Assembly: GCA_045545475.1 (NCBI GenBank)
Contig: JAZQAZ010000029.1
Span: 1 to 64,000 of the forward strand
Reading direction: 5' to 3'
Length of the DNA: 64,000 bases
Source: Clostridia bacterium
GTDB taxonomy: Bacteria; Bacillota; Clostridia; CAKSNL01; HGM11501
Below are positions 6,735-20,576 of this stretch, piece after piece (position 1 is the first letter of the stretch; the number at the start of each line of letters is the position of its first letter). A program made the position numbers and the translations under genes. The notes beneath the pieces are model-generated. The model worked only from the letters and a program-made list of their open reading frames with translations, did not search any database and was not told where the DNA came from.

Positions 6735-6757
6735 CAATAAGACTTCGTAATTAACTC

Positions 6758-6791
6758 AAAAAAGAAGAAGGAGTGCTCCTTCTTCTTTTTT
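6758..6791. terminator. bidirectional intrinsic terminator
   Basis: AAAAAAGAAGAAGGA-GTGC-TCCTTCTTCTTTTTT. Confidence 0.8.
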
Positions 6792-6883
6792 AAGTCCACC
6801 CCCTTGCTATCCTTGCCGTAAGCTTTACTAATACGACATAACCTTGATAGCGTCGGTAAAATAGCATTTTTTTGTAAAATATC

Positions 6884-8470
6884 CTAATTTATGGATGTCC
6901 TCGGTAACACAAACAAATACCCCTCTTGACCTACAAATGTTGGCCAAGAGGGGTATTTCTGTAATTTCCCACGTGACGTGGAAATGAATGGTGGAGCAGA
7001 TGCGTCAGTATCCGAACTTTCACCCTCAACCAACGCAAGCAACTCTTCCTCACAAACCTTCGTATCTCGGTTCGTGTAATTGTAGACGATAAGAAGCCTA
7101 TCATCATACAAGAATATTTTATGCACAAATGTATTTATTAGTCGCTTTCGATACTCCACATCGGACAAATCGCCGTCCCGAAGCTGGTCAAGCAAGAAGA
7201 TAATCATATCCCTTTCAAGTTTCGGTTTCTCGGCTTTTTCTTTTTGGATTTCAAACTCCAAATCCTCAACAGTCGCTTCGAGTTCCTCGAGGCGTTTTTT
7301 TGTTGTCTTGGTAACGACACCGCTCTCGATGGCAGACATTAAATTATTCAAAGCCTTTTGTGCTTCGGAGAGTTCCGCCTTCAGAGCATCGAGGATGCCG
7401 TCCGACCTTTCGGAAGCCTGAATCTCCATCGCCTTGTCAGCGATGCGGTCCACGAGTTCATCGTTCCCGAGGATATTATAATAGATATTCTCGACAACCA
7501 AATTCTCGATGTAGTCCTTTTTTATATTTTTCTTATCACACGGCAGGGTGTGGTTTTTCTTCGCAGCACACTTATAATAATGATACACATCGCCGTACTT
7601 ACCCGTCCCACTTTCACCAATCATCATCGATTTACAATGACCGCAGAACAACTTCGTGGTAAGAAGATAGTCCACCCGAGCCTTCTTCTTTGCCCCGGCT
7701 TTTTTGTTTTTGTTTAACATTTTCTGCACCTTCTCCCAAAGTTCATCGGACACGATGCGAGGGATAGCATCAGGAACAACTCGGTCTTGATAAATGTAGA
7801 TACCCTTATACCGAGGATTTGAAAGAATACGAGGAAGGCTATTCTTATTAAAAGGCTGCCCTTTTTGAGTTTTAAGGCTCCTCGCATTCAGGTGTTCGAT
7901 GATATCTTTTGCACACCAGCCGTCCGCATACAACTCAAAGATTTTAGCGACAAGCGGTGCTTTCTCTTCGTCAAGAACGATGTTCTTGTCAGCATCGGAT
8001 TTATACCCAAGAGGAAGCGAACCAGTAACCTTACACTTCAATGCACTTTCACGCATTCCTCGCCTTATTTTCTGCGCCAGTTCCGCAGAGTAATATTCAG
8101 CCATACCCTCAAGCAAAGACTCGACAAGGATGCCTTCAGGTTCATCAGAGATGCTCTCCATGACGGAGATGACCTTCACACCGTTACGGCGTAACCTCGC
8201 TTTATAGGTGGCAGAGTCGTAACGATTACGGCAAAAGCGGTCGAGTTTCCACACAAGGATAACATCGAACAACCCCTTCTCGCTGTCTTTTATCATTTTT
8301 TGAAACTGCGGACGATTGTCAGTCTTTGCAGACAAGGCACGGTCGATATATTCACTCACGATACGGATGCCGTTTGTGTTTGCATAGGACAGGCAATCTC
8401 GCATCTGCCCCTCGATACTTTGCTCGGTTTGGTTATGCGATGAAAACCGGGCATATATGACGGCTCTCAT
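6884..8470 (-). CDS. large serine recombinase (integrase)
   Basis: YARFSS catalytic Ser, KLDRFCRN, recombinase domain, CGHC...YYKC zinc ribbon, coiled coil; 3' end crosses the att core. Confidence 0.95.
   Translation of the reverse strand: MRAVIYARFSSHNQTEQSIEGQMRDCLSYANTNGIRIVSEYIDRALSAKTDNRPQFQKMIKDSEKGLFDVILVWKLDRFCRNRYDSATYKARLRRNGVKVISVMESISDEPEGILVESLLEGMAEYYSAELAQKIRRGMRESALKCKVTGSLPLGYKSDADKNIVLDEEKAPLVAKIFELYADGWCAKDIIEHLNARSLKTQKGQPFNKNSLPRILSNPRYKGIYIYQDRVVPDAIPRIVSDELWEKVQKMLNKNKKAGAKKKARVDYLLTTKLFCGHCKSMMIGESGTGKYGDVYHYYKCAAKKNHTLPCDKKNIKKDYIENLVVENIYYNILGNDELVDRIADKAMEIQASERSDGILDALKAELSEAQKALNNLMSAIESGVVTKTTKKRLEELEATVEDLEFEIQKEKAEKPKLERDMIIFLLDQLRDGDLSDVEYRKRLINTFVHKIFLYDDRLLIVYNYTNRDTKVCEEELLALVEGESSDTDASAPPFISTSRGKLQKYPSWPTFVGQEGYLFVLPRTSIN
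6915..6958 (-). terminator. hairpin just outside the left att site; possible original ssrA terminator
   Basis: AAATACCCCTCTTG...CAAGAGGGGTATTT 14-bp inverted repeat. Confidence 0.55.
6989..7016. repeat. left att junction (core + P arm)
   Basis: TGGTGGAG cagatgc GTCAGTATCCGAA. Confidence 0.85.
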
Positions 8471-8501
8471 TCATTACACCTCCTAACTTTTTTAAGATTA
8501 G

Positions 8502-8556
8502 GTATTGTGCAATGCTGGAATTTGTGATATAATATCAATACAACATTGCACAATAC
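8502..8556. promoter_or_regulatory. inverted repeat in integrase leader with embedded + strand promoter-like sequence
   Basis: GTATTGTGCAATG...CATTGCACAATAC perfect 13-bp IR; TTGTGC-17-TATAAT at 8505-8533. Confidence 0.5.
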
Positions 8557-8575
8557 ATTTGTCTGTGTGTTATGT

Positions 8576-8824
8576 TTATATGCTCCGATTGGCGGTGGTG
8601 CGCTGGTCGGAGTTTTTCTTTCGTTCGGAAATCTTGCCCTGCATCACCCCTAAAATAAAAGCGGTCCCTACAATTGTATCATCCTCGAGATGTTCGCCAA
8701 ACAGTTCGTTGATGATTCGGTCGTAAACAATAGCCTGCGACTGATTTATTGCTTCAATAATTTGTGGTTCGGATAAAGCTCGCTTCAAAATGCTTAATTC
8801 TTCGGAGTGCTTTTCCAGTATCAT
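8576..8824 (-). CDS. hypothetical protein (start uncertain)
   Basis: Part of ORF 8576..8944; MILEKHSEEL start fits the gene string between the HTH gene and the integrase. Confidence 0.5.
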   Translation of the reverse strand: MILEKHSEELSILKRALSEPQIIEAINQSQAIVYDRIINELFGEHLEDDTIVGTAFILGVMQGKISERKKNSDQRTTANRSI

Positions 8825-8859
8825 TTTTAATACTTCGCATTCCTTTTCTGTGCATACTC

Positions 8860-9348
8860 TCATTCTACAACACCTCGCTCGAAAAGTTCCGCCATGGAAT
8901 ACTCGGGAAAGTATTTGCTTGTTATGGTGGTTGCTTCTTCCCAATAAAAATCACTTTTGCCTGTTATTTTATCGAATAATGCATCAAGTGATATTTTAAG
9001 TTCCGCAGCGAGTTCTGAAAATGCAATATTTTTACCAAGTAACGATTTGAAAAGTTTGTGATACAGATTTGTTTCCATATCTTTTGAAAGAAAGAAATAT
9101 GCACCTACTTCTGCTGAAGATATCTCTCCGAGTGCTGTTTTCACTTTCTGCATTTCTTCCCATGTAAAATGGCGATTCCCTTTAATCTTTTCACGGAAGG
9201 TTCTCGGGTTCATTTGTACGATGTTTGCAAATTTCTCCATGGTTTTAGCATTGTGCTTAATGCGCTCCTTCAGTAAGATTCCTGAATATTGGAGATACAT
9301 AGTTTTTTCCTTTGCGACATTGGTCGCAGTTTTTAAATTGTTAAGCAT
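8860..9348 (-). CDS. tandem Cro/Xre-like HTH protein
   Basis: Two similar units (FANIVQMNPRTFREKIKG..FTWEE; LAAELKISLDALFDKITG..FYWEE); RBS AAAGGAG and TTGACA-17-TAGAAT promoter. Confidence 0.7.
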   Translation of the reverse strand: MLNNLKTATNVAKEKTMYLQYSGILLKERIKHNAKTMEKFANIVQMNPRTFREKIKGNRHFTWEEMQKVKTALGEISSAEVGAYFFLSKDMETNLYHKLFKSLLGKNIAFSELAAELKISLDALFDKITGKSDFYWEEATTITSKYFPEYSMAELFERGVVE

Positions 9349-9377
9349 GGTTTTGCTCCTTTCTATATTAACTATAG

Positions 9378-9491
9378 TAATTCTATCATAAGTGTAGAAG
9401 AATGTCAACCCCTTGTGTAGATTTTTTCTCATAAGTGTACACATTCTCTTGAAATGTTCTAAAATGTGTGTTATAATTACTTATAATAGAA
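9378..9491. promoter_or_regulatory. back-to-back promoters and operator repeats (genetic switch)
   Basis: Leftward TTGACA-17-TAGAAT; rightward TTGAAA-17-TATAAT (9449-9477); TCATAAGTGTA repeated at 9386 and 9429. Confidence 0.7.
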
Positions 9492-9513
9492 AAAATAAAA
9501 AGGAGGTTTTTGT

Positions 9514-9729
9514 ATGCCTTTTTGCTATAATAAGCTTTGGTTTAAACTCATTGAACACAAAATGACAAAGGAACAGCTGCGAGAAAAAATCAAAGCTTCA
9601 CCCTCTACCATTTCCAAGATGGGAAGGGACGAAACGGTCCACTTGGATGTCATCGACCGCATCTGTACCGAGTTACAATGTGAGCCACAAGATATAATTG
9701 AATATTTACCTTGTCAGGAGCGGAAGTGA
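9514..9729 (+). CDS. small Xre/Cro (HTH_26-like) regulator
   Basis: YNKLWFKLIE...STISKMGRDETVHLDVIDRICTELQCEPQDIIEY; RBS AGGAGG. Confidence 0.88.
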   Translation: MPFCYNKLWFKLIEHKMTKEQLREKIKASPSTISKMGRDETVHLDVIDRICTELQCEPQDIIEYLPCQERK

Positions 9730-9747
9730 ACCGCTCCTGATTTTTTT
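9714..9747 (+). terminator. intrinsic terminator between convergent HTH and TMP genes
   Basis: TCAGGAGCGG-loop-CCGCTCCTGA followed by T-run. Confidence 0.7.
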
Positions 9748-9778
9748 CTTCCAAGATGACAATGTTTTTTGTTATTGA

Positions 9779-12145
9779 TTACAAGACGGATAGTGCTAAT
9801 TTAAGTTCAGGGACAATTGTGTTGACAATATCCCGACCTAAAGATTTCAAATCCTTACCAGTGCCATCTATGTTTAAAGTAAGGTTGATGGTGTTTCCGC
9901 CACCCTTTCGGTCGAGCGGTTCAACCGATGCACCCTTCGGAAGGTGCAACATTTCGGGGCCTCTTTCGCCGACAATTACATCACCCGGACGGGTAATGTT
10001 GCCGCCGTTTGCAAGCATCGGAAGGTTCACGGTCTGCAGTTTCGTTATGTTGACTCCGGGGATTTTGTTTATTACCCCGATTGCCCAGTTAATCGAATTT
10101 ATAAAGCCGTTGATGAGGTTTCCTGCGAAACTTATCACGCTGTTTATAACCGACTTAAACGCACCCGATATTCCGTTTGCGATGCTCGTTCCTATGCTGG
10201 TGAACATATTCTTGATGGTGTCCCATATCCCTTGGAAGAAACCGACCACGCCCGAGAAGGCGTTTACGACCATATTCCAAGCAGATGTGAAGATGCCACC
10301 GAACCACGAAGCCACGCCCGAAAATACGGACACGATTCCGTTCCATGCGGTGCTTGCTGCAGTTGTAAAGAAGCTGAATGCAGATGCGACTGCGTTTTTT
10401 ATTCCGCTCCACAAATTAGAGAAGAATGTCCCAATTGCTGTGCCTATTGTGACAAAAAACTCTTTTACGGAATTCCAAGCAGTCTTGACTCCGTTACAGA
10501 TTGCATCCCAGTTCTGAATAACAACCCCTATAATGAGTCCTATTCCGCCTGTAAAAATACCAAGAATAACGGGCCAGAACTGAACAAAGAAGTTTTTTAT
10601 GCCGTTCCACACATTTGAAGTAACCTCTTTGACTTTTCCCCAAAGGGTTGAGAAGAAGTTTCCGATGGCACTTCCAATGTTGACGAAGAAGTCTTTCACT
10701 CCTTGCCATGCATTTTTCATAAAACTACATACGCTGTCCCAGTTTTTGTAAAGCAAGACACCGATTGCGATGACTGCTCCTATCGCTGCAACAACAAGAA
10801 AAATCGGAGAAGTAACGAAAGCCATCGCCGCACCGAGTGCGGTTGTTGCTGCCGATGCAACGCCTGCTGCTGCTGCGTGAGCAAGTTCGGCTACGGTCAT
10901 TGCCCCTGTCGCTGCTGCACTTGCTCCTGTGGTTGCGGTTACAATTGCCTGCAGTCCGTTTGTGATTCCAACGGCTACATTGTAGGCTGCGACCGCTCCG
11001 GCGACTCCATAAACTATGGGGCCGAGCCAGTTCCAGTTGTCAATTACGAGCGAGGTTATGTCTGCCACGAGCTGCAATCCCGAACCGATGCCATCGAGTG
11101 CTGTTGTCAGTATTCCTGTCCAGCTTATGCTTCCGCCCATTCCTACCAAACCGTCCCATACAGGCTGTATGGCTGTTACCAAATTGTCAAAGGCTGGCTT
11201 GATGGAATTTTGCACGCCGTTCCATACAGTGTCTATAAATGTAGTTGCTACATTCGCTACGCCCTGAATTACGGGCATAACCGTGTTGACGGCTGTTGTG
11301 AATGCGGATTGAATTGCTGGAAGTTTTGTGGTTATGTACTGCAAGACGGTTGTTACAATCGGATACAATTTAGTTCCGATGACCTCTTGCATATCGCCCC
11401 ACGCATTTTTTAACTGCTGAACTTTACCCTCGGGAGTGTTTGCCATTGCTTCGGCAAGCCCACCGAAGTTTTGACCTAAAACCTCCACGAGCATTGCGGC
11501 TCGTTCACTTTCTGTTCCTGTTTTCAGTATTTTCGACTGTGCATCGTTAAGGGTTACGCCGTATCGAGTAAGTGCGCCGACATTTCCTGTCATAACCTTA
11601 CCGACAAGGTTTGCCATCGACTGCATTTGGTCGCCTGAAACTGCGACACCATATTGCGAAACCGCCAAGTCCTGAAGGGCAGGTAGAATTGTTTTTATTG
11701 TGTCGCTCTGTAATTGGAATGTGGCAAGCTGTGAAGCACCTTGAATTGTTACTTCATCTCCGACCGTGGTTACGCCTTGGAGTTCGGCTGCGTATTTTTT
11801 CATCGCAGACACATTCTCCATGGTTGTGCCTGCCACATTCATCATGAGTGTTTCAAGTCGTGCTTCTGCACTTGCTTGAGTGTTTGCGGCATCGATGCAC
11901 TCCTTGCCCCATGTTACGAGTTGCTTTATGCTGGCATAGGCTGCGACAGCTCCAACAGCCTTTTTTGCCATTGAAGCGAGACTTGTTCCAGCTGAGTTCG
12001 TCTGTGAACTGAACTTCTTCACGGATGAGGTTGCAATATCTGAGTTCTTTTTAAAGTTACTAAGACCAGTTACTGCGCTTTTTATGCCGGACTTAAATCC
12101 ACCATCTTTAAGTGTAATTGTTGCACCAATATTCTTAGCTGCCAT
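9779..12145 (-). CDS. phage tail tape measure protein
   Basis: Ala/Gly-rich helical protein, periodic W/F repeats, TM-like segments, C-terminal LPMLANGG..VGERGPE motif. Confidence 0.88.
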   Translation of the reverse strand: MAAKNIGATITLKDGGFKSGIKSAVTGLSNFKKNSDIATSSVKKFSSQTNSAGTSLASMAKKAVGAVAAYASIKQLVTWGKECIDAANTQASAEARLETLMMNVAGTTMENVSAMKKYAAELQGVTTVGDEVTIQGASQLATFQLQSDTIKTILPALQDLAVSQYGVAVSGDQMQSMANLVGKVMTGNVGALTRYGVTLNDAQSKILKTGTESERAAMLVEVLGQNFGGLAEAMANTPEGKVQQLKNAWGDMQEVIGTKLYPIVTTVLQYITTKLPAIQSAFTTAVNTVMPVIQGVANVATTFIDTVWNGVQNSIKPAFDNLVTAIQPVWDGLVGMGGSISWTGILTTALDGIGSGLQLVADITSLVIDNWNWLGPIVYGVAGAVAAYNVAVGITNGLQAIVTATTGASAAATGAMTVAELAHAAAAGVASAATTALGAAMAFVTSPIFLVVAAIGAVIAIGVLLYKNWDSVCSFMKNAWQGVKDFFVNIGSAIGNFFSTLWGKVKEVTSNVWNGIKNFFVQFWPVILGIFTGGIGLIIGVVIQNWDAICNGVKTAWNSVKEFFVTIGTAIGTFFSNLWSGIKNAVASAFSFFTTAASTAWNGIVSVFSGVASWFGGIFTSAWNMVVNAFSGVVGFFQGIWDTIKNMFTSIGTSIANGISGAFKSVINSVISFAGNLINGFINSINWAIGVINKIPGVNITKLQTVNLPMLANGGNITRPGDVIVGERGPEMLHLPKGASVEPLDRKGGGNTINLTLNIDGTGKDLKSLGRDIVNTIVPELKLALSVL

Positions 12146-12368
12146 TGTTTTCACCTTCTTTCGTCAAAACTGTTTTGTTGTATATTTGCTCCACTTTCTT
12201 TAATAATTGCTCCTTTTCTGCCTTTCCAATATCGCCTATAACATAAGCATATATAATTGCTCCGCACAACATTTCCTTACTTACCTTAAACGAGTATGAC
12301 GGACCACCGTTATCATCAAACTCTGTAATAAGTTTTTGTAAAGTTTCACATTTTGCATTCTTTTTCAC
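12135..12368 (-). CDS. hypothetical protein coupled to the TMP gene
   Basis: 77 aa, GTG start behind GGAGGTG; stop overlaps TMP start. Confidence 0.6.
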   Translation of the reverse strand: MKKNAKCETLQKLITEFDDNGGPSYSFKVSKEMLCGAIIYAYVIGDIGKAEKEQLLKKVEQIYNKTVLTKEGENNGS

Positions 12369-12404
12369 CGCACCACCTCCAGTTTTTTGCGGTTTTCATG
12401 GTGG

Positions 12405-12492
12405 GTCTATCCCCCTCAAAACTTTTGCGAAAATTCACACGAAGGGGGGCTGCGGTCTGGAGCGATTAACTCACAGAGATTTATATACCCCC
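12405..12492 (-). other. cos-like packaging site
   Basis: Minus strand GGGGGTATATAAATCTCT...AGACCGCAGCCCCCC TTCGTGTGAATTTTCGCAAAA...GAGGGGGATAG; resembles the HNH-terS intergenic cos regions of Firmicute siphophages. Confidence 0.6.
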
Positions 12493-12902
12493 TATAAGAC
12501 TTCATGACAAACAATTTTAATGCTTCGATACTTTTCATCTGAATCAAGTACTGAGTCGATTAAAAGTTTTTTGTTTTCAAATATAACATACATATCGCTT
12601 GTTAATCCGGGAATAAATCGGATACGAATATGGTATGTAGTTTCAGCTCGAAGCTTTTGTGATTGCTCATATTGTCTGCCTGTCAACGGAGTAACTTCTG
12701 CACAAAAGGCATATTGACAATTGTTAATGTCGATAACTTCGCCTGATGGAAGTGTCCATTGATTTTCTTGTGTGAAAAATTCTTGCTTCGGGAGGTTCGG
12801 GTGATAAAGAGAGTAGGCAGGGACCGTTTCGCCCATGCCGTTGGTTACGGCCCCTGCAGGTTTAGCAAACAAGATTCTGTGTCTTAAATTACCAAATCTC
12901 AT
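12492..12902 (-). CDS. phage head-closure / head-tail adaptor (SPP1 gp16-like)
   Basis: MRFGNLRHRI.F...AEVTPLTGRQY...TYHIRIRF...I.SVLD...KIVCHE pattern. Confidence 0.8.
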   Translation of the reverse strand: MRFGNLRHRILFAKPAGAVTNGMGETVPAYSLYHPNLPKQEFFTQENQWTLPSGEVIDINNCQYAFCAEVTPLTGRQYEQSQKLRAETTYHIRIRFIPGLTSDMYVIFENKKLLIDSVLDSDEKYRSIKIVCHEVL

Positions 12903-12914
12903 TATGCCACCCCT

Positions 12915-14003
12915 TTACTCTGTTTTGGCGTTCTCTACAACTCTTGCCTCCAATGTTACAAACGGAGACACAGGCTGTGAGCCTTTATAAGGAGTTACTG
13001 CTTTTGTAAGCATCGGCTTTCCATCAAGTCTATACACAAACCTGAAGGCTGTTTCATCGTAAATAAATCTTACATGAATTGATTCTGTAGCCTTAATGCC
13101 TGCCTTTTCTGCAATTACATACTGAGACATATCTGCGAGAAGAATATCTCCTTTATGTCCCGGTTCGGATGCCTGTTCGATGAAGTTGACAGGCTTGCCG
13201 AGAAGTGTGCCGTGAGGTGCACCTGCGATTGAGCCTTCAGGGAGGTAGATGGGGGTATCACCTATTTTCATTGTCATGAGTGCTGGCAGAAGTTCCTGAT
13301 TGATGTACCATTCTGCCTTGCCCTGCTTGTCGTAGCAAGCTGCGAGCATCTTTACGATGTTTTCAACTGTAAGAAGTTCAGTCTGTCCATCTTCCTTGGG
13401 AATAATAACTAAAGCTTCAGAATTAAAAATTCCCAGTGGCTGTTTTTCGCCGGTTCCGTATAATACTTTATCTGCTATATTGAAGCTGAATTCATCCGCA
13501 AACCCTGCTTTGATTACTTCTCCCAGTGCGGGCGCATCTTCAAGCAGTTCATCTGTTGCATAACAAATGCCCGCAAGTTTATTGAGTGTCAATTTGCACC
13601 GTTCAAACTTCGGCTTACTTTTTGCAATCTCTGCAGCTTCGCTTTCCCAGTAAGCCTGAATGCCGCCCCATCTGCTACCGTCTGCACGGCTGTTTTCGTT
13701 GATGCCGTTGACTATAAGCGAGTTTGAACCTGTACTTAATGGGATTCTTGTAATTTTTGTTAATAGAGGATGTTCCTCATAAACATTTTCTTTTAAGTCC
13801 ATAACGAAGTCCGTCTGAACAAGATACCCTCCATCGGTCGCTACCCCTTCTCCTGCACCTGACACAAGGTTGGCAAGTCGTTCATCAGGAAGTCCGCCGG
13901 GTTTTTCCATATTGTATATGGCACTAAGCTGTTCTCCAAAACTGGAGAACTTTTTTGATTTTTCAGCGCCGTACGCCGATTTAATGTTATTTCTGCTATT
14001 CAT
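12915..14003 (-). CDS. HK97-family major capsid protein (short N-terminus)
   Basis: DGGYLVQTDF, YWESEA, TDELLEDA, GTGEKQPLGI, LLGKPV, SIHVRFIYDETAFRFVYRLDG, SPFVTL. Confidence 0.92.
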   Translation of the reverse strand: MNSRNNIKSAYGAEKSKKFSSFGEQLSAIYNMEKPGGLPDERLANLVSGAGEGVATDGGYLVQTDFVMDLKENVYEEHPLLTKITRIPLSTGSNSLIVNGINENSRADGSRWGGIQAYWESEAAEIAKSKPKFERCKLTLNKLAGICYATDELLEDAPALGEVIKAGFADEFSFNIADKVLYGTGEKQPLGIFNSEALVIIPKEDGQTELLTVENIVKMLAACYDKQGKAEWYINQELLPALMTMKIGDTPIYLPEGSIAGAPHGTLLGKPVNFIEQASEPGHKGDILLADMSQYVIAEKAGIKATESIHVRFIYDETAFRFVYRLDGKPMLTKAVTPYKGSQPVSPFVTLEARVVENAKTE

Positions 14004-14021
14004 TTTAGATCACTGTCCTTT

Positions 14022-14792
14022 TTAATAATAATTTTTTAAAGCCTGAATTGTTTTATCTTTTCTTAGTTCTTTTATTCCTTTATCGATATTTACACTCACT
14101 TGATATGTTGTTAAACCGAGTTTTGTAGAAATTTCCTTGATTGTGTACTCGCTGTAAAACCTCAACCTTATGCACCGCCTTAAAGTAGGAGAAAGCTTAT
14201 TGACGGCGCAATTTAATATTTCCGGCAGGTCATATTCTTCGATTTTAGAATATTCCTCGAAAGAGTTTTCATCAAAAATCGCATCTTGCAAGAGCAGGTC
14301 CTCGTCATCAGAAAGTACGCTCTGTTGTAAACTTTTGATTTCTTGGTTTGCAATTAGTGCTTCTTGTAAAACTTCGGCAGAAACTTCGAGGTATTCTGCA
14401 ATCTCTTTGGTTGTTGGTTTTCGTCCGAACCTTTCAGCAAGTTCCGATTCTGCTTTTCTCGCTTTAAAATATAATTGCCGCGCCTCCGTGGAGATTTTTA
14501 TTGAAACGCTGTGTCTATATCGATAATCTGCAATCACCTCCTTTAAGTACCCAGCAAGGAAAGTTGAGAATTTATACCCTGCATTGATGTCAAAATTCCG
14601 TGTTGCTCGCTCCATACAAAGATACGCATCTTGCATCGCATCTTCTTGGTAGGCTTCGTCAACGAACGATTTTCTTAACATTAACCTTATGAATTTTTTG
14701 TTTCGTTCATAAAGCCGCAACAGGTTATATTCTTCATCAATTCCTTGCTGAATTTTTTTGACGATTTCCTCGTTTGTTTCAGGTAAACCCAT
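14022..14792 (-). CDS. sigma-70 family sigma factor (SigF/FliA-like size)
   Basis: EDAMQDAY...FDINAGYKFSTF (region 2), GRKPTTKEIAEYL (region 3), IRLRFY..TIKEISTKLG (region 4). Confidence 0.85.
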   Translation of the reverse strand: MGLPETNEEIVKKIQQGIDEEYNLLRLYERNKKFIRLMLRKSFVDEAYQEDAMQDAYLCMERATRNFDINAGYKFSTFLAGYLKEVIADYRYRHSVSIKISTEARQLYFKARKAESELAERFGRKPTTKEIAEYLEVSAEVLQEALIANQEIKSLQQSVLSDDEDLLLQDAIFDENSFEEYSKIEEYDLPEILNCAVNKLSPTLRRCIRLRFYSEYTIKEISTKLGLTTYQVSVNIDKGIKELRKDKTIQALKNYY

Positions 14793-14875
14793 TGACTTTC
14801 CTCCTGTTATGTAGTATAATATTTCCAAGAGTAAAAGTGCTTTTCATCAGGTTTACTATTAAAGAGCGGACTGTT

Positions 14876-15457
14876 TTATGAACGGTCCCTCTTTTTTATT
14901 GGTGGGAAAAGTTTGTCCAACGGCTCCTTGAGTAAAACTTCTGGCTCGGGAGATTCCACCGCTTTCATAAAGTGCAACAGAAGAATACTCAAAAGCCTTG
15001 CATATATATTTCCGTAGCACCACTGAACCGCTGCGTATGTCTTGCCGGCCCCGTTGTATGTAAAACGATTATTGCTACGATCCAACAGTTTCTTTGATGC
15101 AAGCATATATTTGTAAGCTGCATAAAACTCTTTAAGTCGTTCTGATAACAGCGGAGCGAGCCTTTTTATTTTTTCCGAGCCGTCCAAAAACCACGATATG
15201 TCACTTCTTACAAATGATACCGGGGTTTTATATGACTCTGCAGGATTGTTTATCGCTCCTGATACCGGGATGCCGTTACTTATAGTAACATAAGGGATTT
15301 TTGCTCCAAGGCACAATTTCATGTGCTTTTGTGCTGTTTCGTTATCTATACCGATGCCTTCATCAAACATTCCAATAGGTATCGGTATAGTTTTTGCATT
15401 GAATTCGCTCTCTATCTCCATCAATTCCTGAAGGCGAGGCGGTAGTTTTTTTGTCAT
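14876..15457 (-). CDS. hypothetical protein
   Basis: 193-aa ORF with strong RBS AAGGAGGTG. Confidence 0.7.
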   Translation of the reverse strand: MTKKLPPRLQELMEIESEFNAKTIPIPIGMFDEGIGIDNETAQKHMKLCLGAKIPYVTISNGIPVSGAINNPAESYKTPVSFVRSDISWFLDGSEKIKRLAPLLSERLKEFYAAYKYMLASKKLLDRSNNRFTYNGAGKTYAAVQWCYGNIYARLLSILLLHFMKAVESPEPEVLLKEPLDKLFPPIKKRDRS

Positions 15458-15474
15458 GGTGTTTCACCTCCTTT

Positions 15475-15710
15475 TCAGGGTAAGGCATTCGTAATGCCAC
15501 AAAACCCTATTATTTTCTTGGCTCATGGGCTTTCCAAAGAAAAGATTGTATATTTATCCTTTGTATACTAATTGATTTACTTCCGTTGTTGTAAACGACT
15601 ACAAAAAACTATGTTATATATTTCTTGATGATATATTTATATCTTTGGAGTAAATCCTTTGTATTACTGGCTTTTCTGCCCTTACCTTATCCTTACTCAA
15701 TCCTTACAAT
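15475..15710. other. putative replication origin of the element
   Basis: AT-rich gap downstream of primase; CCTTAC x3 near 15680-15708, inverted copy GTAAGG near 15480, TCCTTTGTAT x2. Confidence 0.45.
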
Positions 15711-15711
15711 A

Positions 15712-18300
15712 TCAAAATGGTAAATCGTCATCTTCGTCTATTGGTACAAATCCGTCCGGCATTCCGTTGCTTCGGTTTATCGCTTTGTTATAGTCAAATT
15801 CTATAACTTTTACTGATTTCGAGTCGACTGATTTAACGGTTGCTCTTTCGGATGAAATTAATTTGTTTTCGTACAAATACTTCAATGTTTTTTTGTAAGA
15901 AAAGCCTGCTGATGTAAGAGCGTTTTGAAGTTGCATAGGAAAGATGTAACATTTTCCGCATCTCATGAAGCCGTACCTTGGCTCGATATAATCTGTAGTA
16001 AAGTGTTTTTCATTTGACTGTATCCATTCAACCACATAGTCTGACGCGAAGCCGTTCACTTCTCTTTCTTTTGTTGTTGGTTGCATATTAAGGATTTCAA
16101 ATGCCATATTGTAAGCATTTTTATATGCTTCCGCTCTTTCTTCGTTAAAAATCCATACCGACACCAAGTAGTCTGCTGTTGCTGCAAGCGATATTGTATC
16201 GCAATGTGTATAACTATGCCCTGTGCCAAGTTCCCACAAAGCATCAACGATTTTTTGATGCACATCCTTAATTTGTTTTATGTCTGCATCGATGAGTCGT
16301 TCTACGAATATTCCCCACGCCACACCGTAACAGTCTGCGGTTTTTATATGTATGGCTGCCGCATCTTTTTCGCTGTCAAATTGCTTTCCGTATATTTCGA
16401 TTACACGGCTGCTGACACCCTCTTTTGTGCAAGTCTGAACAATCGGCTCTTCGCCTGTGGCAAGCACCCAAGTTTGCCATGATTGTGACCTTTGTATGCC
16501 TCCGCTTTTAGTGCCTCGCTGTTTTCCTTTTCCTTCACCAGCCATGTATACAAGTTTTTCGACAAATTCTTGTCTTGAGCCTGCGAGCTGCCTTTCATCT
16601 ATTCCAACTGGGATATTGTTGAATAAACTCATCGTCTTTTCAAATCCCACCTGTGTACTGTTGAATGAAAGCATTAAGTTTTCAGGTTCTCCGAAGGCTG
16701 ACAAGGCTGCTTTGAGTGCTGCTGTTTTGCCTGTAGCACTGTTTGCCCATAAATAAACAACTACATTTCTGTTTTTAAATACGACACTCAAGAGCAAGGG
16801 GACGAAGGCAGAAGCGAGCAAAAAGCGAAATTTGTTTCTCTTTCGATGCTCTGATAACATTGCACACCATTCCTCGATAGTTCCTCTGTGTGTTTCCAAT
16901 GCCTTGACATAGGTTTGTGCCGTTGCATCCACATCAAGTTGTATGTCGCCACCGTGTCCGGGGAGGAAGTTCTTCTCGGTCGCCCATCCAAGCTGCGACA
17001 CCGACTTTGCTTCTTTGATTCGGTCGATGTTCTCCGATTCGAGTGCTTCCAAGAACGACACGACTTGCTTTGCGTTTTCGCTGGTTATCAATGCTCCGAG
17101 GTCTGCAAGGCTGACGATGTTTCGGCTTTGGTATATCGTGGTTGAGTTAAATATGCCGTATCGCCAGTTGTTTCTTATCTTGAATGCAATCTGTATCTTT
17201 TCCTCATCGGTTTCGATGTTTCGCAGTCGCTTCACGATTATGATTGGTGTTCTGCAGACTCTCTTGTATTGCTCGGTTCGGCTGTCGTATTTGAATATGC
17301 CGTCATCCGAGAGTTTCCAGCCTTCAGGCTCTCGAAGTTTCACGGGCATCCCTGCGACAAGGTCGGGGAGGTTCTCTGCTTCCGTTTTGAGGTCTACCGT
17401 TTCGGCTTTGCTCATTGCGGTTTTCACTTGCTCGAGTGCATCCATTCCGTTTTCGCCGTAGAGTTCGCTCGGGTCTTTGACCTCGTAATCTTCAAGAGTA
17501 AAGGTCAAAACCTCGCCTTCGTATCCGCCCTCATATAACTTGCTTATCATTTGCTGGCGGAATGTCTGACCGCCCTTGTCAGGCTCGATGTGTAGGTATA
17601 ATCTCGGTATGCTTGCGAGTTGTTCCGCCCATTTTGCCTGAAAGTTTGTAGCACCGGGAACTCCAAGAGTGGGAAGTCCGAGCATCCACAGACTCTGCGA
17701 GTCGCTTTCGCCCTCTACAAGAATTGCGTACTCTGTGAACTCTTTGATTTTCCACAATCCGTAAAGGCAGAGGGTTGAGCCTTTTTGCCATTTGAACTTG
17801 CCGTTCGGGTTCGCTGGGCTGTATCGCTTTCGGGTTGCCTGAACCTTTCCGTCTTGGTCTTTGTACGGTATCTTGATGTGCTTACCGCTTTGGTCGGTCC
17901 CTGCGGTTACACCGCATTCGTCTTTGAGCCATTCTGCCATGAAGTGCTTTTCGGTTGCGTATTGCTCCACTCCGTAATCGGGGAGTGAGGGAGGCTTTGT
18001 GCTTTGTTTTTTCTGCTCGACCGAGGTGTCTATGCCTGCGAGTTCGAGAAGTTCCTTGTAGGCTTCGGCATTGTCGATGCCTTTTATCTTGGAAAGAAAA
18101 ACCGTGGCATTTCCGCTCTCTCCACATCCTTCGCACTTGAAGCATCCGTTCTTTGTGTTAAACCAAAAGCTGGGATGTCGTTCCTGATGAAAAGGGCAGC
18201 AAGCGTGCATTTTGTCTTTTCCGCAACTCCGAGGGTTCTTGACATACTGTGAGTAAAAGTCGACCCAGTTTATTCGGCTGTCGATATTTATTTGTTCCAT
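15712..18300 (-). CDS. primase-helicase (CHC2 zinc finger + TOPRIM + DUF927-like)
   Basis: CCPFHQERHPS..CFKCEGC; LVEGESD; EPDKGG; KDPSEL; Walker A-like ANSATGKT, IDERQ; acidic tail DDDLPF. Confidence 0.9.
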   Translation of the reverse strand: MEQINIDSRINWVDFYSQYVKNPRSCGKDKMHACCPFHQERHPSFWFNTKNGCFKCEGCGESGNATVFLSKIKGIDNAEAYKELLELAGIDTSVEQKKQSTKPPSLPDYGVEQYATEKHFMAEWLKDECGVTAGTDQSGKHIKIPYKDQDGKVQATRKRYSPANPNGKFKWQKGSTLCLYGLWKIKEFTEYAILVEGESDSQSLWMLGLPTLGVPGATNFQAKWAEQLASIPRLYLHIEPDKGGQTFRQQMISKLYEGGYEGEVLTFTLEDYEVKDPSELYGENGMDALEQVKTAMSKAETVDLKTEAENLPDLVAGMPVKLREPEGWKLSDDGIFKYDSRTEQYKRVCRTPIIIVKRLRNIETDEEKIQIAFKIRNNWRYGIFNSTTIYQSRNIVSLADLGALITSENAKQVVSFLEALESENIDRIKEAKSVSQLGWATEKNFLPGHGGDIQLDVDATAQTYVKALETHRGTIEEWCAMLSEHRKRNKFRFLLASAFVPLLLSVVFKNRNVVVYLWANSATGKTAALKAALSAFGEPENLMLSFNSTQVGFEKTMSLFNNIPVGIDERQLAGSRQEFVEKLVYMAGEGKGKQRGTKSGGIQRSQSWQTWVLATGEEPIVQTCTKEGVSSRVIEIYGKQFDSEKDAAAIHIKTADCYGVAWGIFVERLIDADIKQIKDVHQKIVDALWELGTGHSYTHCDTISLAATADYLVSVWIFNEERAEAYKNAYNMAFEILNMQPTTKEREVNGFASDYVVEWIQSNEKHFTTDYIEPRYGFMRCGKCYIFPMQLQNALTSAGFSYKKTLKYLYENKLISSERATVKSVDSKSVKVIEFDYNKAINRSNGMPDGFVPIDEDDDLPF

Positions 18301-18330
18301 TTGTTCTCACCACCTTTCCTCTGAACCTTC

Positions 18331-18513
18331 CTATACCAGTTCGGCATCTGTAACCTTTTTGTGTTCAAGCGATGCTTTGCATGATGGCTGCTGTTTTGAA
18401 AAATATGCAAACCTCCCTTTTCTCCGGTTCGGATTATAAGGATGCTTGTCGTTTTTCTTTGTTTTGTTTCGGCTGAAGGTGGTGCTTTCATACCGACTGT
18501 ATTTCTTGCTCAT
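18331..18513 (-). CDS. small basic hypothetical protein
   Basis: RBS AAAGGAGG before ATG at 18513. Confidence 0.5.
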   Translation of the reverse strand: MSKKYSRYESTTFSRNKTKKNDKHPYNPNRRKGRFAYFSKQQPSCKASLEHKKVTDAELV

Positions 18514-18546
18514 AGCAAGACCTCCTTTGTCTGTGTGATTTTAATT

Positions 18547-18735
18547 TTATTCAGATGTTTGTCCGCACTGTTCGTTCAGCCATTTTTGGAGAAGCTGTGC
18601 GTTTATCATCACCCTGCGACCGATTCTGAAGGCTGGATAGAAGTCCTTGGAGTTTAATATTTCCTGTGCCTTAGGCTCGCTGATTCGCATAAGTGATATA
18701 AATTCTTTTCTCGTGAGTATCATTTTCTCACCCAT
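18547..18735 (-). CDS. excisionase/AlpA-like HTH (HTH_17)
   Basis: ILTRKEF...FYPAFRIGRRVMINAQLLQKWL; RBS AAGGAGG. Confidence 0.8.
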   Translation of the reverse strand: MGEKMILTRKEFISLMRISEPKAQEILNSKDFYPAFRIGRRVMINAQLLQKWLNEQCGQTSE

Positions 18736-18881
18736 TAAAATGTCCTCCTTTCGCTTAATAAAACACAATCAAATATAAATTTGTATAAACACTTGATTTG
18801 TTTGTGTTATTATTGTATAATAAATTACAGACAATAAAAATATGGTCTATCAATGGTCTGTATTTTGCGAGGTGATGAGAA

Positions 18882-19841
18882 ATGGTAAACGATGTTTTTG
18901 TGCAACAGGTTCCTGCTCTTGGTGATATCAAAGTAGAAGATGGCATTATTTATTTTAAAAACGGATGTCAAATGAAGGATAGTTTAAACCCTGCCGTTTT
19001 GGGAGCAAGTGTTATTCTTGAGTTTATTAATATTGAGAACGAGTCTAAATTTCGTCTTTTTGTTTCAAAGTATGGGCTTTTAGAAAAGCCACAAGTGTCC
19101 GCAGAACACTACAAAGTAAAAAAAGCAAAAAAAATAACTGGATACCATCCAGTTGCAGCAATAAAAGAGTTTTTGGAATTGCAAAGCGATTTGAGAGGGT
19201 TCTTGGACATCATCCCTGAAATGCATAAAGTGCTAAAAAATAAGAAGTTTGATAATGATTTTAGAAAAGAAGAGGTAGAACCGTTATTATATGACTTTAT
19301 TAATGAGTTGAATGGTTATGTCCGGGCAAGAAAAATTAGTATTTCATATCTGTCTGATAAAAATATATTTCAAACAGAAATTTACTATATGTCATTGCGA
19401 CACTTATTATATTGCAAAATGGCAGAAGTTGTAACTGGCTCTTCAATTCCAAAACGATGCGAAAAATGTAACGATCATTGGATACTCAGTTCAAAGTCAA
19501 ATGTTAAATACTGTACTAAATGCAAAAAGACGGCATCAAAACAAAAAACAAGAGAAAATAAAAAGAACGACATAAAAGAACAGGTATATCTTGGTGTTTA
19601 TGGGCACATAAATACCAAGGCACAGAGAGGTGTTGATTTTTCGCCATATATTATCGATAGAGACAACTTTGACTACCAACGCTTTATAGATAAGGCACTT
19701 AAAATAAAAAGGGAAAGTACAGATTTTTTTCATGATTTGGATGAACTATGTAAATCTGTTTGTATGTGTAGAAAATGTCAAAGTGGACTCGCAACCTTTT
19801 ATAAAACAAAATATGAAAGAAAACAAGGCAGCCCTGAATAA
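18882..19841 (+). CDS. hypothetical protein with C4 zinc finger (CGNR/DUF6076-like, tentative)
   Basis: KRCEKC...VKYCTKC plus terminal CMCRKC; AT-rich; RBS GAGGTG. Confidence 0.6.
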   Translation: MVNDVFVQQVPALGDIKVEDGIIYFKNGCQMKDSLNPAVLGASVILEFINIENESKFRLFVSKYGLLEKPQVSAEHYKVKKAKKITGYHPVAAIKEFLELQSDLRGFLDIIPEMHKVLKNKKFDNDFRKEEVEPLLYDFINELNGYVRARKISISYLSDKNIFQTEIYYMSLRHLLYCKMAEVVTGSSIPKRCEKCNDHWILSSKSNVKYCTKCKKTASKQKTRENKKNDIKEQVYLGVYGHINTKAQRGVDFSPYIIDRDNFDYQRFIDKALKIKRESTDFFHDLDELCKSVCMCRKCQSGLATFYKTKYERKQGSPE

Positions 19842-19879
19842 GAGCTGCCTTGTACAGTTATATATTTTTTAACAAAACG

Positions 19880-19913
19880 AAAGCACCGGGGCGTGAAAAC
19901 CTCGGTGCTTTTT
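19880..19913. terminator. element-supplied bidirectional terminator downstream of ssrA
   Basis: AAAGCACCG...CGGTGCTTTTT. Confidence 0.7.
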
Positions 19914-19974
19914 GTCAGCCTCACCGTTTCAAATCAATGAGTTGACACAGAGCCAATCCAAAGAAAAATACGGT

Positions 19975-20000
19975 TTCGGATACTGACACGATTGGTGGAG
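19975..20000. repeat. right att junction (P arm + core in ssrA 3' end)
   Basis: TTCGGATACTGAC acgat TGGTGGAG. Confidence 0.85.
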
Positions 20001-20335
20001 GCGACGGGAGTCGAACCCGTGTCCGAAAATCTATCCGCACAGGCATCTCCGGGTGCAGCTTATGGTTAAGATTCCCCCACGCTTAAGTCCACAAGCAAAC
20101 TTAAGCGGTCGGTAGCTTCATTAGTCATGCCGTGCTCAAAGCTTTGCACGGTCACGTTCACCGCTAATCGACGCCCGAGCCGGAGTCGCGGTTATCCCCG
20201 GGCGGACGGCTGCACGTTAGGCAGCGATTGCTAAATTTCTGTTAGCGTTTATATTTAGAATTGAGTTTTTTAAGTGGTACTCGCCACTACCCGCTTCCCA
20301 TGGTTCAAAATCCCCGTCGAAACCGGAACGCCCCC
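19993..20335 (-). ncRNA. ssrA: tmRNA; tag (A)ANRNLAIAA* encoded at 20217-20246
   Basis: 5' GGGGGCG..GGTTTCGAC; 3' GGGTTCGACTCCCGTCGCCTCCACCA; G3-U wobble; next to smpB. Confidence 0.97.
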
Positions 20336-20340
20336 AAGTG

Positions 20341-20576
20341 AATAAATTGCAATAAAGCAATTTATGAACGAAAAATGCAAAAACGGCGCTGACGCAAAAA
20401 AGCGAACAGCTTTTTTAGGCTTTTGCATTATAAAATAGAAAATACGAACAGTATTTTCTAAAATAAATTGCAATAAAGCAATTTATGAACGAAAAATGCA
20501 AAAACGGCACTGGCGCAAAAAAGCGAACAGCTTTTTTAGGCTTTTGCATTACTAATTAGGAAATACGAACAGTATT
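20341..20576. repeat. tandem duplication of a ~121-bp multi-hairpin unit
   Basis: Units begin at 20341 and 20462 (AATAAATTGCAATAAAGCAATTTATGAACG...). Confidence 0.85.

Follow-up and report, generated by a model that had tools for sequence, protein, structure and literature searches.

An island of 13,004 bp, integrated at the 3' end of an intact transfer-messenger RNA (tmRNA) gene, occupies positions 6989-19992 of the 64,000 nucleotides of contig JAZQAZ010000029.1 (Clostridia bacterium, GCA_045545475.1) that were analysed as a whole and are called here the window. We think that this island is, with good probability, a helper-dependent satellite of one particular lineage of myophages. Three independent links tie it to this lineage: a major capsid protein (MCP) that is sister to those of the phages, a non-coding site homologous to the interval between the HNH endonuclease and the terminase small subunit (TerS) genes of the phages, and an allele of their tape measure protein (TMP). 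Little has been charted so far of the phage satellites that live in strictly anaerobic gut Clostridia. Here sequence alone allows both the family of satellites and the lineage of its probable helper to be named, by means of the same three features. An original prediction, made from the letters of the window, had proposed a satellite that uses the helper's terminase through a cohesive-end (cos) site while providing head and tail-length parts of its own. The recurrence of the gene set, the selection acting on it, the homology of the site and the kinship of the MCP and TMP support that proposal.

The tmRNA gene (19993-20335, minus strand) was found with ARAGORN and matches Rfam RF00023 over model positions 1-374 of 374 with 159.5 bits; it served as integration target and was left intact. 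An 8-nt core, CTCCACCA, is present twice, at 20000-19993 in the end of the tmRNA and at 6996-6989 within the integrase open reading frame (ORF). The attR site (6989-7016, minus strand) comprises the latter core, with the crossover within CTCCA at 6996-6992, and the left attP arm at 7016-7004, while attL (19975-20000, minus strand) comprises the core at the tmRNA 3' end and the right, inverted-repeat arm of attP at 19987-19975. When the ends of the island are joined, the reconstructed attP shows these two arms as perfect 13-bp inverted repeats around a 20-bp spacer whose centre coincides with CTCCA. The crossover was placed inside CTCCA by comparing the four junctions of the window and of an island that is 98-99% identical in a different host (L001). 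Long direct repeats were considered as att sites and none was found; the core of just 5-8 nt is what is expected of a serine integrase. The integrase itself has Resolvase, Recombinase and Zn-ribbon domains, in keeping with an attP of inverted half-sites and central crossover. Three of the seven loci scanned in relatives carry the tmRNA (G010, G011 and G007, from genomes of the same genus), and in each of these the homologue of window position 6988 follows the 3' end of the tmRNA with nothing in between. Among the sequencing runs listed (24, all as assembled contigs), run X1 includes a contig in which 6957 is joined to 19988; contigs that begin exactly at 6989 come from X1 and X3, and others end at 19994-20000. 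The att core, the geometry of attP, the L001 junctions, the empty sites and the run contigs thus define the island as 6989-19992, which bears out the predicted 13-kb tmRNA-integrated element with both att sites intact.

The element is mobile between hosts. Within the order of the host, the MCP is present in one of 14 genomes, a rarity that fits a recent acquisition of the island. In the host of L001, the tmRNA body and its flank differ from those of the window and the island is near-identical; the island has moved recently between host species, so that there is gene flow of this element between species of ruminant-gut bacteria. The integrase (6884-8470, minus strand; PF00239 8.7e-32, PF07508 9.2e-22, PF13408 2e-12, phrog_95 6.7e-122) has 528 aa in the window versus 493 aa in L001, and its C-terminal residues differ between hosts because the ORF reads across attR into host DNA.

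The gene array starts past the CCA end of the tmRNA, lies nearly all on the minus strand and ends with this large serine recombinase. The 14 ORFs of the island were scanned with Pfam and PHROGs, NCBIfam being also used, and these profile searches confirm the inventory of the original prediction, with all the listed genes open and correctly named. The core of the array, all on the minus strand, begins with a primase-helicase (15712-18300) composed of a CHC2 zinc finger, DUF927 and a Cch helix-turn-helix (HTH) domain (PF01807, PF06048, PF18662; phrog_8841 8.8e-135). It is followed by a family-specific ORF of 193 aa (14876-15457) that is conserved in relatives and has no Pfam, PHROG or NCBIfam match, no usable Atlas match and an AlphaFold2 model with pLDDT 62. 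Next come a sigma-70 family factor with regions 2, 3 and 4, SigB/F/G-like in profile searches (14022-14828), and the HK97-fold MCP homologue of 362 aa (12915-14003; PF05065 3.4e-42, TIGR01554 9.2e-52). A head closure/completion protein of 136 aa resembles SPP1 gp16 (12492-12902; PF05521 1.2e-16, TIGR01563 gp16_SPP1). The non-coding core of the cos-like site (12404-12494) is followed by a 77-aa ORF (12135-12368), which stands after the site in most members of the family, including some without TMP, and has no family match in Pfam, PHROG or NCBIfam. The array continues with the TMP of 791 aa (9779-12154), which matches 38 PHROG families, mostly of tape measures and at best with 1.6e-57, and no Pfam family.

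Among the 14 ORFs, Pfam and PHROGs gave no match to terminase, portal, prohead protease, sheath, tube, baseplate or lysis genes; no ORF matched a TerS family, and neither a scaffold gene nor conjugation or mobilisation genes were seen. When all ORFs of at least 60 aa from seven helper-type phage loci were compared with the island by tblastn, only the TMP, the cos-like site, the head-closure gene and the MCP were matched, and no remnants of other phage genes were found, just as had been predicted. The island is, then, what is generally called a satellite: a small integrative element with its own integrase, primase-helicase and regulators and with no gene set for forming a virion.

The same gene set recurs in diverged relatives. 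Family members were collected by scans with the MCP and the primase, followed by BLAST maps, and they have a constant gene order: primase, 193-aa ORF, sigma factor, MCP, one or more connectors, site, 77-aa ORF, a variable slot and the HTH_26 regulator. This order, of which the original prediction had given primase-sigma-MCP-adaptor-cos-TMP for the window, is seen in L001, L008, L007, L002 and L014 and in the fragments L011, L012 and L095. At least six diverged members are found in metagenome-assembled genomes (MAGs) of Clostridia and in IMG/VR contigs, and in every one the sigma factor lies immediately upstream of the MCP. The genes of L001, from a goat MAG, are 93-99% identical to those of the window, except for a TMP of 684 aa (54%) and the 77-aa ORF (86%). 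L008, from a roe deer MAG, has a sigma factor 98%, an MCP 71% and a head-closure protein 91% identical, together with a 684-aa TMP. L007, from another MAG, keeps an MCP with 75% and a head-closure protein with 56% identity, has in addition an HK97-gp10/Neck1-type protein and carries no TMP. L002 (a MAG) and L014 (an IMG/VR contig) share 59-61% identity in the primase, 40-54% in the sigma factor and 58-64% in the MCP; both are likewise without a TMP and encode a P-loop protein and a gp10/Neck1-type connector, to which L002 adds a ClpP-type prohead protease. The fragments, all three from IMG/VR, code for proteins 79-100% identical to those of the window. The integration modules have been swapped within the family, with either a serine integrase at tmRNA or a tyrosine integrase at tRNA-Met: L007, L008 and L009 adjoin tRNA-Met, and L007 and L008 carry a tyrosine integrase of 401 aa. 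Near-identical sequence occurs in 16 runs, which come from 13 studies of the gut or faeces of animals and each contain at least half of the sampled words, and a second scan of genomes with a short-form MCP as query added one 3.6-kb fragment (L141). The satellite family is real but small.

One candidate member, L006, was set apart as a different and larger element with SNF2 helicase and methylase genes. Its serine integrase is 99% identical and its primase 73% identical overall, the N-terminal part of the primase resembling that of the window by eye, and its neighbours are genes for SNF2 helicase, C5 methylase, DUF7307 and MT-A70 rather than the satellite module. Upstream of the primase of L011 there are a partial C5 methylase, DUF7307 and two ORFs of 161 and 268 aa, similar to the block upstream of the L006 primase. 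From the blocks shared by L006 and L011, the early modules appear to be shuffled between satellites and other elements.

The phage contigs nearest to the satellites are L013 and L091, and L010, L090 and L093. The gene order in these phages is HNH endonuclease, TerS, ParB-methylase, terminase large subunit (TerL), portal, ClpP protease, MCP (422-423 aa) and gp6 connector, continuing with head completion, gp10, tail terminator, sheath, XkdM-type tube, XkdN-type chaperone and TMP; in L013 there is an extra 215-aa ORF between HNH and TerS. On these gene contents, the helper is probably to be sought in this group of contractile myophages with HK97-type capsids and XkdK/M/N-type tails, which would package their DNA by means of HNH, TerS and TerL at a cos site.

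The capsid gene is one point on which the original prediction, which had listed an open MCP gene, has to be corrected. The satellite MCPs, as judged by alignment, are without the N-terminal delta (scaffolding) domain of about 70-80 residues, so that the gene is not a full capsid gene. All six satellite MCPs have 347-363 aa and start 10-20 residues before a conserved FGEQL motif, versus 421-481 aa and a coiled, charged extension of about 70-80 residues before FGEQL in 69 of the 70 phage-context homologues (the MCP of L075, with 321 aa and apparently truncated, was excluded). In BLAST alignments satellite residue 14 pairs with phage residue 81, and the window MCP matches TIGR01554 at model positions 100-384 of 385 only. 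That the protein has the HK97 fold is indicated by PF05065, by TIGR01554 and by a Foldseek search with its AlphaFold2 model (pLDDT 66), in which the top matches are HK97-fold capsids (E 4e-13) and the capsid of the capsid-forming phage-inducible chromosomal island (cf-PICI) EcCI2 and the SaPIbov5 procapsid (7rwz_B, rank 38) also appear. Short forms of 343-362 aa make up 12 of the best 120 clusters (90% identity) in a collection of 5.8 billion proteins, all 12 among the closest matches, the other 108 clusters having 421-445 aa. In a quick maximum-likelihood IQ-TREE run on 51 rows, with near-identical phage rows collapsed, the six satellite MCPs form one clade (SH-aLRT 99) that is sister to those of the phages L091 and L093 (support 100). 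The window MCP is 63-65% identical to that of the putative helper; in the comparison with the L010/L093 proteins it shows 64% identity, and the head-closure protein 41% to its phage counterpart of 158 aa. The ratio of nonsynonymous to synonymous substitution rates (dN/dS) is 0.09-0.14 between satellite MCPs, for pairs with dS of 0.74-2.5, and 0.05-0.37 for the head-closure gene. The structural genes of the satellites are under purifying selection. As the loss of the delta domain is common to all satellite MCPs, which form one clade with low dN/dS, it is old, shared and maintained. Such a delta-less MCP is an extreme capsid variant, and it could inform how the size of HK97-type capsids is set. 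A 1-nt deletion common to L011 (7478-8571) and L012 (2952-4045), two contigs of one satellite lineage, is equivalent to a position near 13319 of the window and breaks the MCP up into two ORFs, with 242 and 140 aa; it may be a genuine pseudogene variant or else an error present in both.

These data bear directly on the idea that the island is a decaying prophage remnant, that is, a one-off deletion derivative of a myophage which has kept the MCP, head-closure and TMP genes. The MCP, connector and TMP do stand in the order of a phage late operon, full phages make up the clade that is sister to the satellite MCPs, and one sub-lineage has the frameshifted MCP. Nevertheless, at least six diverged members, between them with two types of integrase, have the same gene set, the MCPs of all of them descend in one clade that shares the loss of the delta domain under a dN/dS of 0.09-0.14, no remnants of other phage genes remain, the att sites are intact and the island has been transferred recently from host to host. 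We hold a remnant to be extremely improbable. It fails on each of the counts by which the original prediction had proposed to recognise it.

The second link to the myophages is the non-coding site. Window positions 12404-12494 are 90.2% identical over 92 nt to L013 752-843, which lies between the HNH (phrog_144, 1.5e-38) and TerS (phrog_83, 1.4e-19) genes of that contig. An exact 31-mer of the site was found in four IMG/VR contigs, all of them in phage context. HNH and TerS likewise flank the site in L125 and L126, and in L127 the contig covers the TerS side only. The core of the site is kept in L001, L008, L011, L012, L095 and L007, in the last of them twice, and partly in the distant satellite L014, and the DNA that flanks it is unrelated between satellite and phage. 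The interval between HNH and TerS is said, in the work of Kala et al. 2014, to be the canonical position of cos in HNH-dependent packaging systems. We therefore regard 12404-12494, a homologue of the phage HNH-TerS intergenic region, as a candidate cos and call it cos-like. A stable RNA or DNA structure within it was considered and rejected (z -0.59). The second core of L007 (4095-4168) is of the phage sequence type and lies just inside the end on the tRNA-Met side, the usual copy being at 12006-12095. Contig breaks near the site and inside the TMP were examined as possible DNA ends and set aside, as they are best explained by branching of the assembly graph between phage and satellite.

The third link is the TMP. 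Over residues 4-618 the satellite TMP shares 97.4% identity with that of the myophage contig L090 (93.1% nucleotide identity, dN/dS 0.054), where the gene is preceded by those for sheath, tube and XkdN-like chaperone. The DNA homology between the two begins exactly at the TMP start codon and ends near the stop. In the phages this protein is hypervariable: L090 and L093 are 99-100% identical in sheath, tube and chaperone and just 72% in the TMP. Among the satellites, L001 and L008, divergent elsewhere, have in common a 684-aa TMP allele with 97% identity, and a contig of run X2 shows an island that is similar except for a replaced central segment of the TMP. The least phage-like part of the satellite TMP is encoded by about its first 100 codons, with 87% amino acid identity versus 97-100% for each later block of 100 codons, a distribution that suggests an exchange between phage and satellite limited to the central part of the gene. 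By eye, the N-terminus of the TMP is similar among the satellites (window 9779-12154, L090, L093, L001 and L008 were compared). The original prediction had listed the TMP as a component of the class; among the members in which the slot after the site is covered, it is present in five (the window, L001, L008, L012 and L095) and absent in three (L002, L007 and L014). The TMP is thus an optional component in this family, and the slot after the site is variable. In the TMP-less L002 (8705-9148) and L014 (8189-8641) the slot holds a P-loop protein of 147-150 aa. It matches the central part of phrog_4581, a family annotated as TerS whose N-terminal part is matched by the helper HNH, and may be a packaging accessory.

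Several points weigh against the reading of the island as a satellite of these myophages that is packaged through the cos-like site. No copy of the site is detectable in L002. In L013 the site runs up to the start codon of the gene behind it, and it contains a TATAAA-like stretch, as a late promoter or 5' leader might. One can therefore picture a satellite in which the 92-nt element is such a promoter or leader, answering a regulator of the helper or of the satellite itself, for example the sigma factor, and in which packaging proceeds via some other signal or as concatemers in full-size helper heads, with about four copies per phage genome of about 52 kb. This picture gains from a ribosome-binding stretch next to the start codon that the site abuts in L013, from the position of the site before the 77-aa ORF and TMP in the satellite, from an AT-rich -10-like box within it, from the conservation of the sigma factor in the family and from the 48-60 kb records of the named phages nearest to the helper-type TerS. 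It fits less well with the position between HNH and TerS, with the approximately 100 nt of unrelated sequence that separate the site from TerS in L126 and L127, and with an invariant core that is rich in G and C, unlike a promoter; moreover, the cos-type Staphylococcus aureus pathogenicity islands (SaPIs) offer a parallel for packaging through cos (PMC5052747). We judge a promoter or leader in place of a cos to be decidedly unlikely.

Other adverse points concern the helper and the structural proteins. As to the helper prophage with a matching cos for which the original prediction had proposed to look, a homologous site is found in the phage contigs L013, L125, L126 and L127, and the window's own genome, which is 95% complete, shows no helper, having no PF04860 portal, PF03354 TerL or sheath homologue. 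A helper-type portal was found in none of the five other satellite-bearing MAGs, a weak negative as it comes from a single-protein query, and there is no sign of excision, circles or packaging in the run contigs, with no attP joint among the joints listed. The 97% identity of the TMP could come from gene conversion during co-replication instead of functional selection, the split MCP of L011 and L012 makes loss of this protein possible in a persisting lineage, and the sole effect of an MCP without the delta domain might be to poison assembly. It is common for satellites to serve in defence as well, and the last point leads to the alternative of an anti-phage island, in which the MCP, head-closure protein and TMP would act solely as dominant-negative decoys against incoming myophages and the island would not be packaged. 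An MCP without the domain needed for self-assembly and the missing resident helper are what this alternative expects, and the capsid homologue Ccm of SaPIbov5 itself blocks phage phi12 by 1e6- to 1e7-fold, according to PMC5052747. It leaves unexplained, however, why a non-coding HNH-TerS site of phages is conserved in nearly all members, and how near-identical islands spread to hosts with a different tmRNA when no conjugation or mobilisation genes are seen. Nor does PADLOC indicate a defence function: it gave weak domain matches only, to the sigma factor and the primase, and matched no defence family otherwise. We consider a pure anti-phage island unlikely and keep to a packaged, helper-dependent satellite.

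For such a satellite, the following course of events can be proposed. Upon infection with, or induction of, a phage of the lineage, the island would excise and replicate with its own primase-helicase. The sigma factor, encoded directly upstream of the MCP, would switch on the genes from MCP to TMP. The HNH, TerS and TerL of the helper would cut the shared site and package satellite DNA in units of 13 kb. The delta-less MCP would co-assemble with the MCP, portal and protease of the helper into small capsids fitting 13 kb, as Ccm does for SaPIbov5, and this shift to small capsids would also harm the helper. The head-closure protein and the TMP might become parts of the particle, whose neck and tail would then be chimeric, as was shown for tails with the TMPs of the PICI-like elements (PLEs) of Vibrio, and the slot after the cos-like site would hold exchangeable virion parts matched to the helper. 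Granted a helper-dependent satellite, we give a Ccm-like role of the MCP, drawn by analogy, an even chance.

A bolder idea joins a "pre-matured" capsid subunit with a cassette slot beside the cos site that tracks the helper. An MCP without internal scaffold would enter a shell only by co-assembly with full-length helper MCP, and the small size of the capsid would thereby be set without a dedicated size-determination protein. Into the slot, parts such as a tape measure, a Neck1/gp10-type connector, a prohead protease or a P-loop packaging accessory would be swapped, each repeatedly captured from the helper currently exploited or gene-converted by it, so that the satellite keeps pace with the hypervariable TMP of its helper. 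We put this combination forward tentatively, and as a whole it is doubtful; if true, the cassette slot would give satellites a general means of changing helpers and of evading host defences directed at the TMP.

The remaining genes of the island are regulators and small ORFs. Near the tmRNA, a DUF6076 zinc-ribbon protein (18882-19841, plus strand; PF19553 2e-06) is divergent from the long operon, and homologues with 29-32% identity occupy the same place in L002 and L008. The operon side begins with an HTH_17 protein that is xis-like, i.e., excisionase/AlpA-like (18547-18768, minus strand; PF12728 2.6e-05, below the gathering score; phrog_66 3.3e-04). At the other end of the array, HTH_26, a regulator of the Cro/C1 type (9514-9729, plus strand; PF13443 2.1e-16), is 79-99% identical across the family. 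Divergent from it, the leftward arm contains in order a 194-aa ORF of uncertain start (8860-9444, minus strand) with a weak repressor-like match (phrog_4583 9.5e-06), a small conserved ORF (8576-8944, minus strand) and the integrase. The 70-nt region between HTH_26 and the 194-aa ORF contains strong divergent promoter-like sites at 9408-9380 (minus) and 9449-9477 (plus). The small ORF has about 95 aa in relatives, is 70-94% identical in L001, L007 and L008, and has no significant family in Pfam or PHROG profile searches.

The surroundings of the island deserve some remarks of their own. The host DNA that flanks attR (6753-6988, 236 nt) contains two hairpins, including the likely original terminator of the tmRNA, and is a dispersed repeat with five other full or partial copies of 80-90% identity in the genome of the window (C1, C39, C7, C50 and C37); copies also follow the tmRNA in genomes of the same genus. 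Directly before the 5' end of the tmRNA gene lies a tandem duplication (20341-20576) of a 115-nt unit, with 95% identity and 121-nt spacing, which may be a duplicated promoter region. The tag peptide given by ARAGORN is unusual, ATPARASISGERDRAKL in the window and in two genomes of the same genus and ANNNLAYAA in a third same-genus copy, and the reading-frame call of the tag is probably unreliable.

Among known satellites, the classical PICIs of Penades and co-workers are reportedly made up of an integrase, a divergent pair of repressor and cro-like genes, xis/AlpA, primase/rep and a packaging module, with no structural genes. The island has in common with them the integrase, regulators, xis-like gene and primase, but its integrase is at the 3' end of a co-directional array and it encodes an MCP, a head-closure protein and a TMP. 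The cf-PICIs, for their part, encode everything needed for capsids and packaging (bioRxiv 10.1101/2022.09.08.507074). With these the island shares a capsid protein of its own and, presumably, dependence on helper tails; of the genes that define them (MCP, protease, portal, connectors, HNH, TerS and TerL), however, it has the MCP and one connector. The EPIPs of Mycolicibacterium aichiense have small heads and are listed, in the preprint PMC12822802, with TerS, adaptor, stopper, serine integrase, HTH, scaffold, MCP and TMP. By gene list the island resembles them in its serine integrase, HTH, stopper-type connector, MCP and TMP; unlike in EPIPs, no TerS or scaffold was found in the island, the EPIP gene list given there is without primase-helicase or sigma factor, and the EPIP host belongs to Actinomycetota. 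The PLEs are the precedent for a satellite-encoded TMP: in PMC12987554, experiments place the PLE TMP in chimeric tails, deletion of tmp lowers transduction by 96-99%, and predicted tmp genes are noted in satellites outside Vibrionaceae, including some cf-PICIs. The island is likened to PLEs only by the principle of a TMP encoded in a satellite. The PLE TMP is, in the same paper, 20% identical to that of ICP1 and comes with its own chaperone and hub protein in a tmp-tac-hub cluster, whereas the TMP of the island is 97% identical to a phage allele, has no recognisable chaperone beside it and is optional in the family. Furthermore, a PLE is a Vibrio element specific to ICP1, and both host and gene content differ from those of the island.

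By analogy, the island would work most like a cos-type SaPI with Ccm. In PMC5052747 and PMC8569155, Ccm is described as related to the capsid protein of phi12 and as having the HK97 fold and a shorter delta domain; it takes pentamer positions, forces small capsids, forms no shells alone and cuts phi12 titres 1e6- to 1e7-fold. Like the cos-type SaPIs described there, the island measures about 13 kb, encodes an HK97-fold capsid homologue with shortened N-terminus and has no TerS, its cos being a candidate. Unlike Ccm, which according to the same papers keeps a cleaved delta domain of 87 residues, the island MCP is without almost the whole domain, and it is 63-65% identical to that of its putative helper, compared with 24% between Ccm and the phi12 capsid protein. 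The likeness between the island MCP and Ccm is at the level of the fold and comes from the fold search alone (7rwz_B, rank 38). The island also departs from the cos-type SaPIs in its putative myophage helper, head-closure protein, TMP, sigma factor and serine integrase at tmRNA. The original prediction had spoken of a distinct class of satellites: a recurring family does exist, but each of its principles is already known from the Ccm of SaPIbov5, from the TMPs of PLEs and cf-PICIs and from EPIPs. No paper listed by the literature searches has a title or abstract opening that describes such a satellite family. What is new is the setting in gut Clostridia with, as we infer, a myophage as helper, an MCP whose delta domain is essentially gone, a conserved sigma factor, interchangeable integrases, and a variable slot by the cos-like site with a TMP allele that tracks the helper's. 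In our opinion, this pairing of satellite and phage extends both the Ccm principle and the principle of satellite-encoded TMPs to a new phylum-level setting and to myophages.

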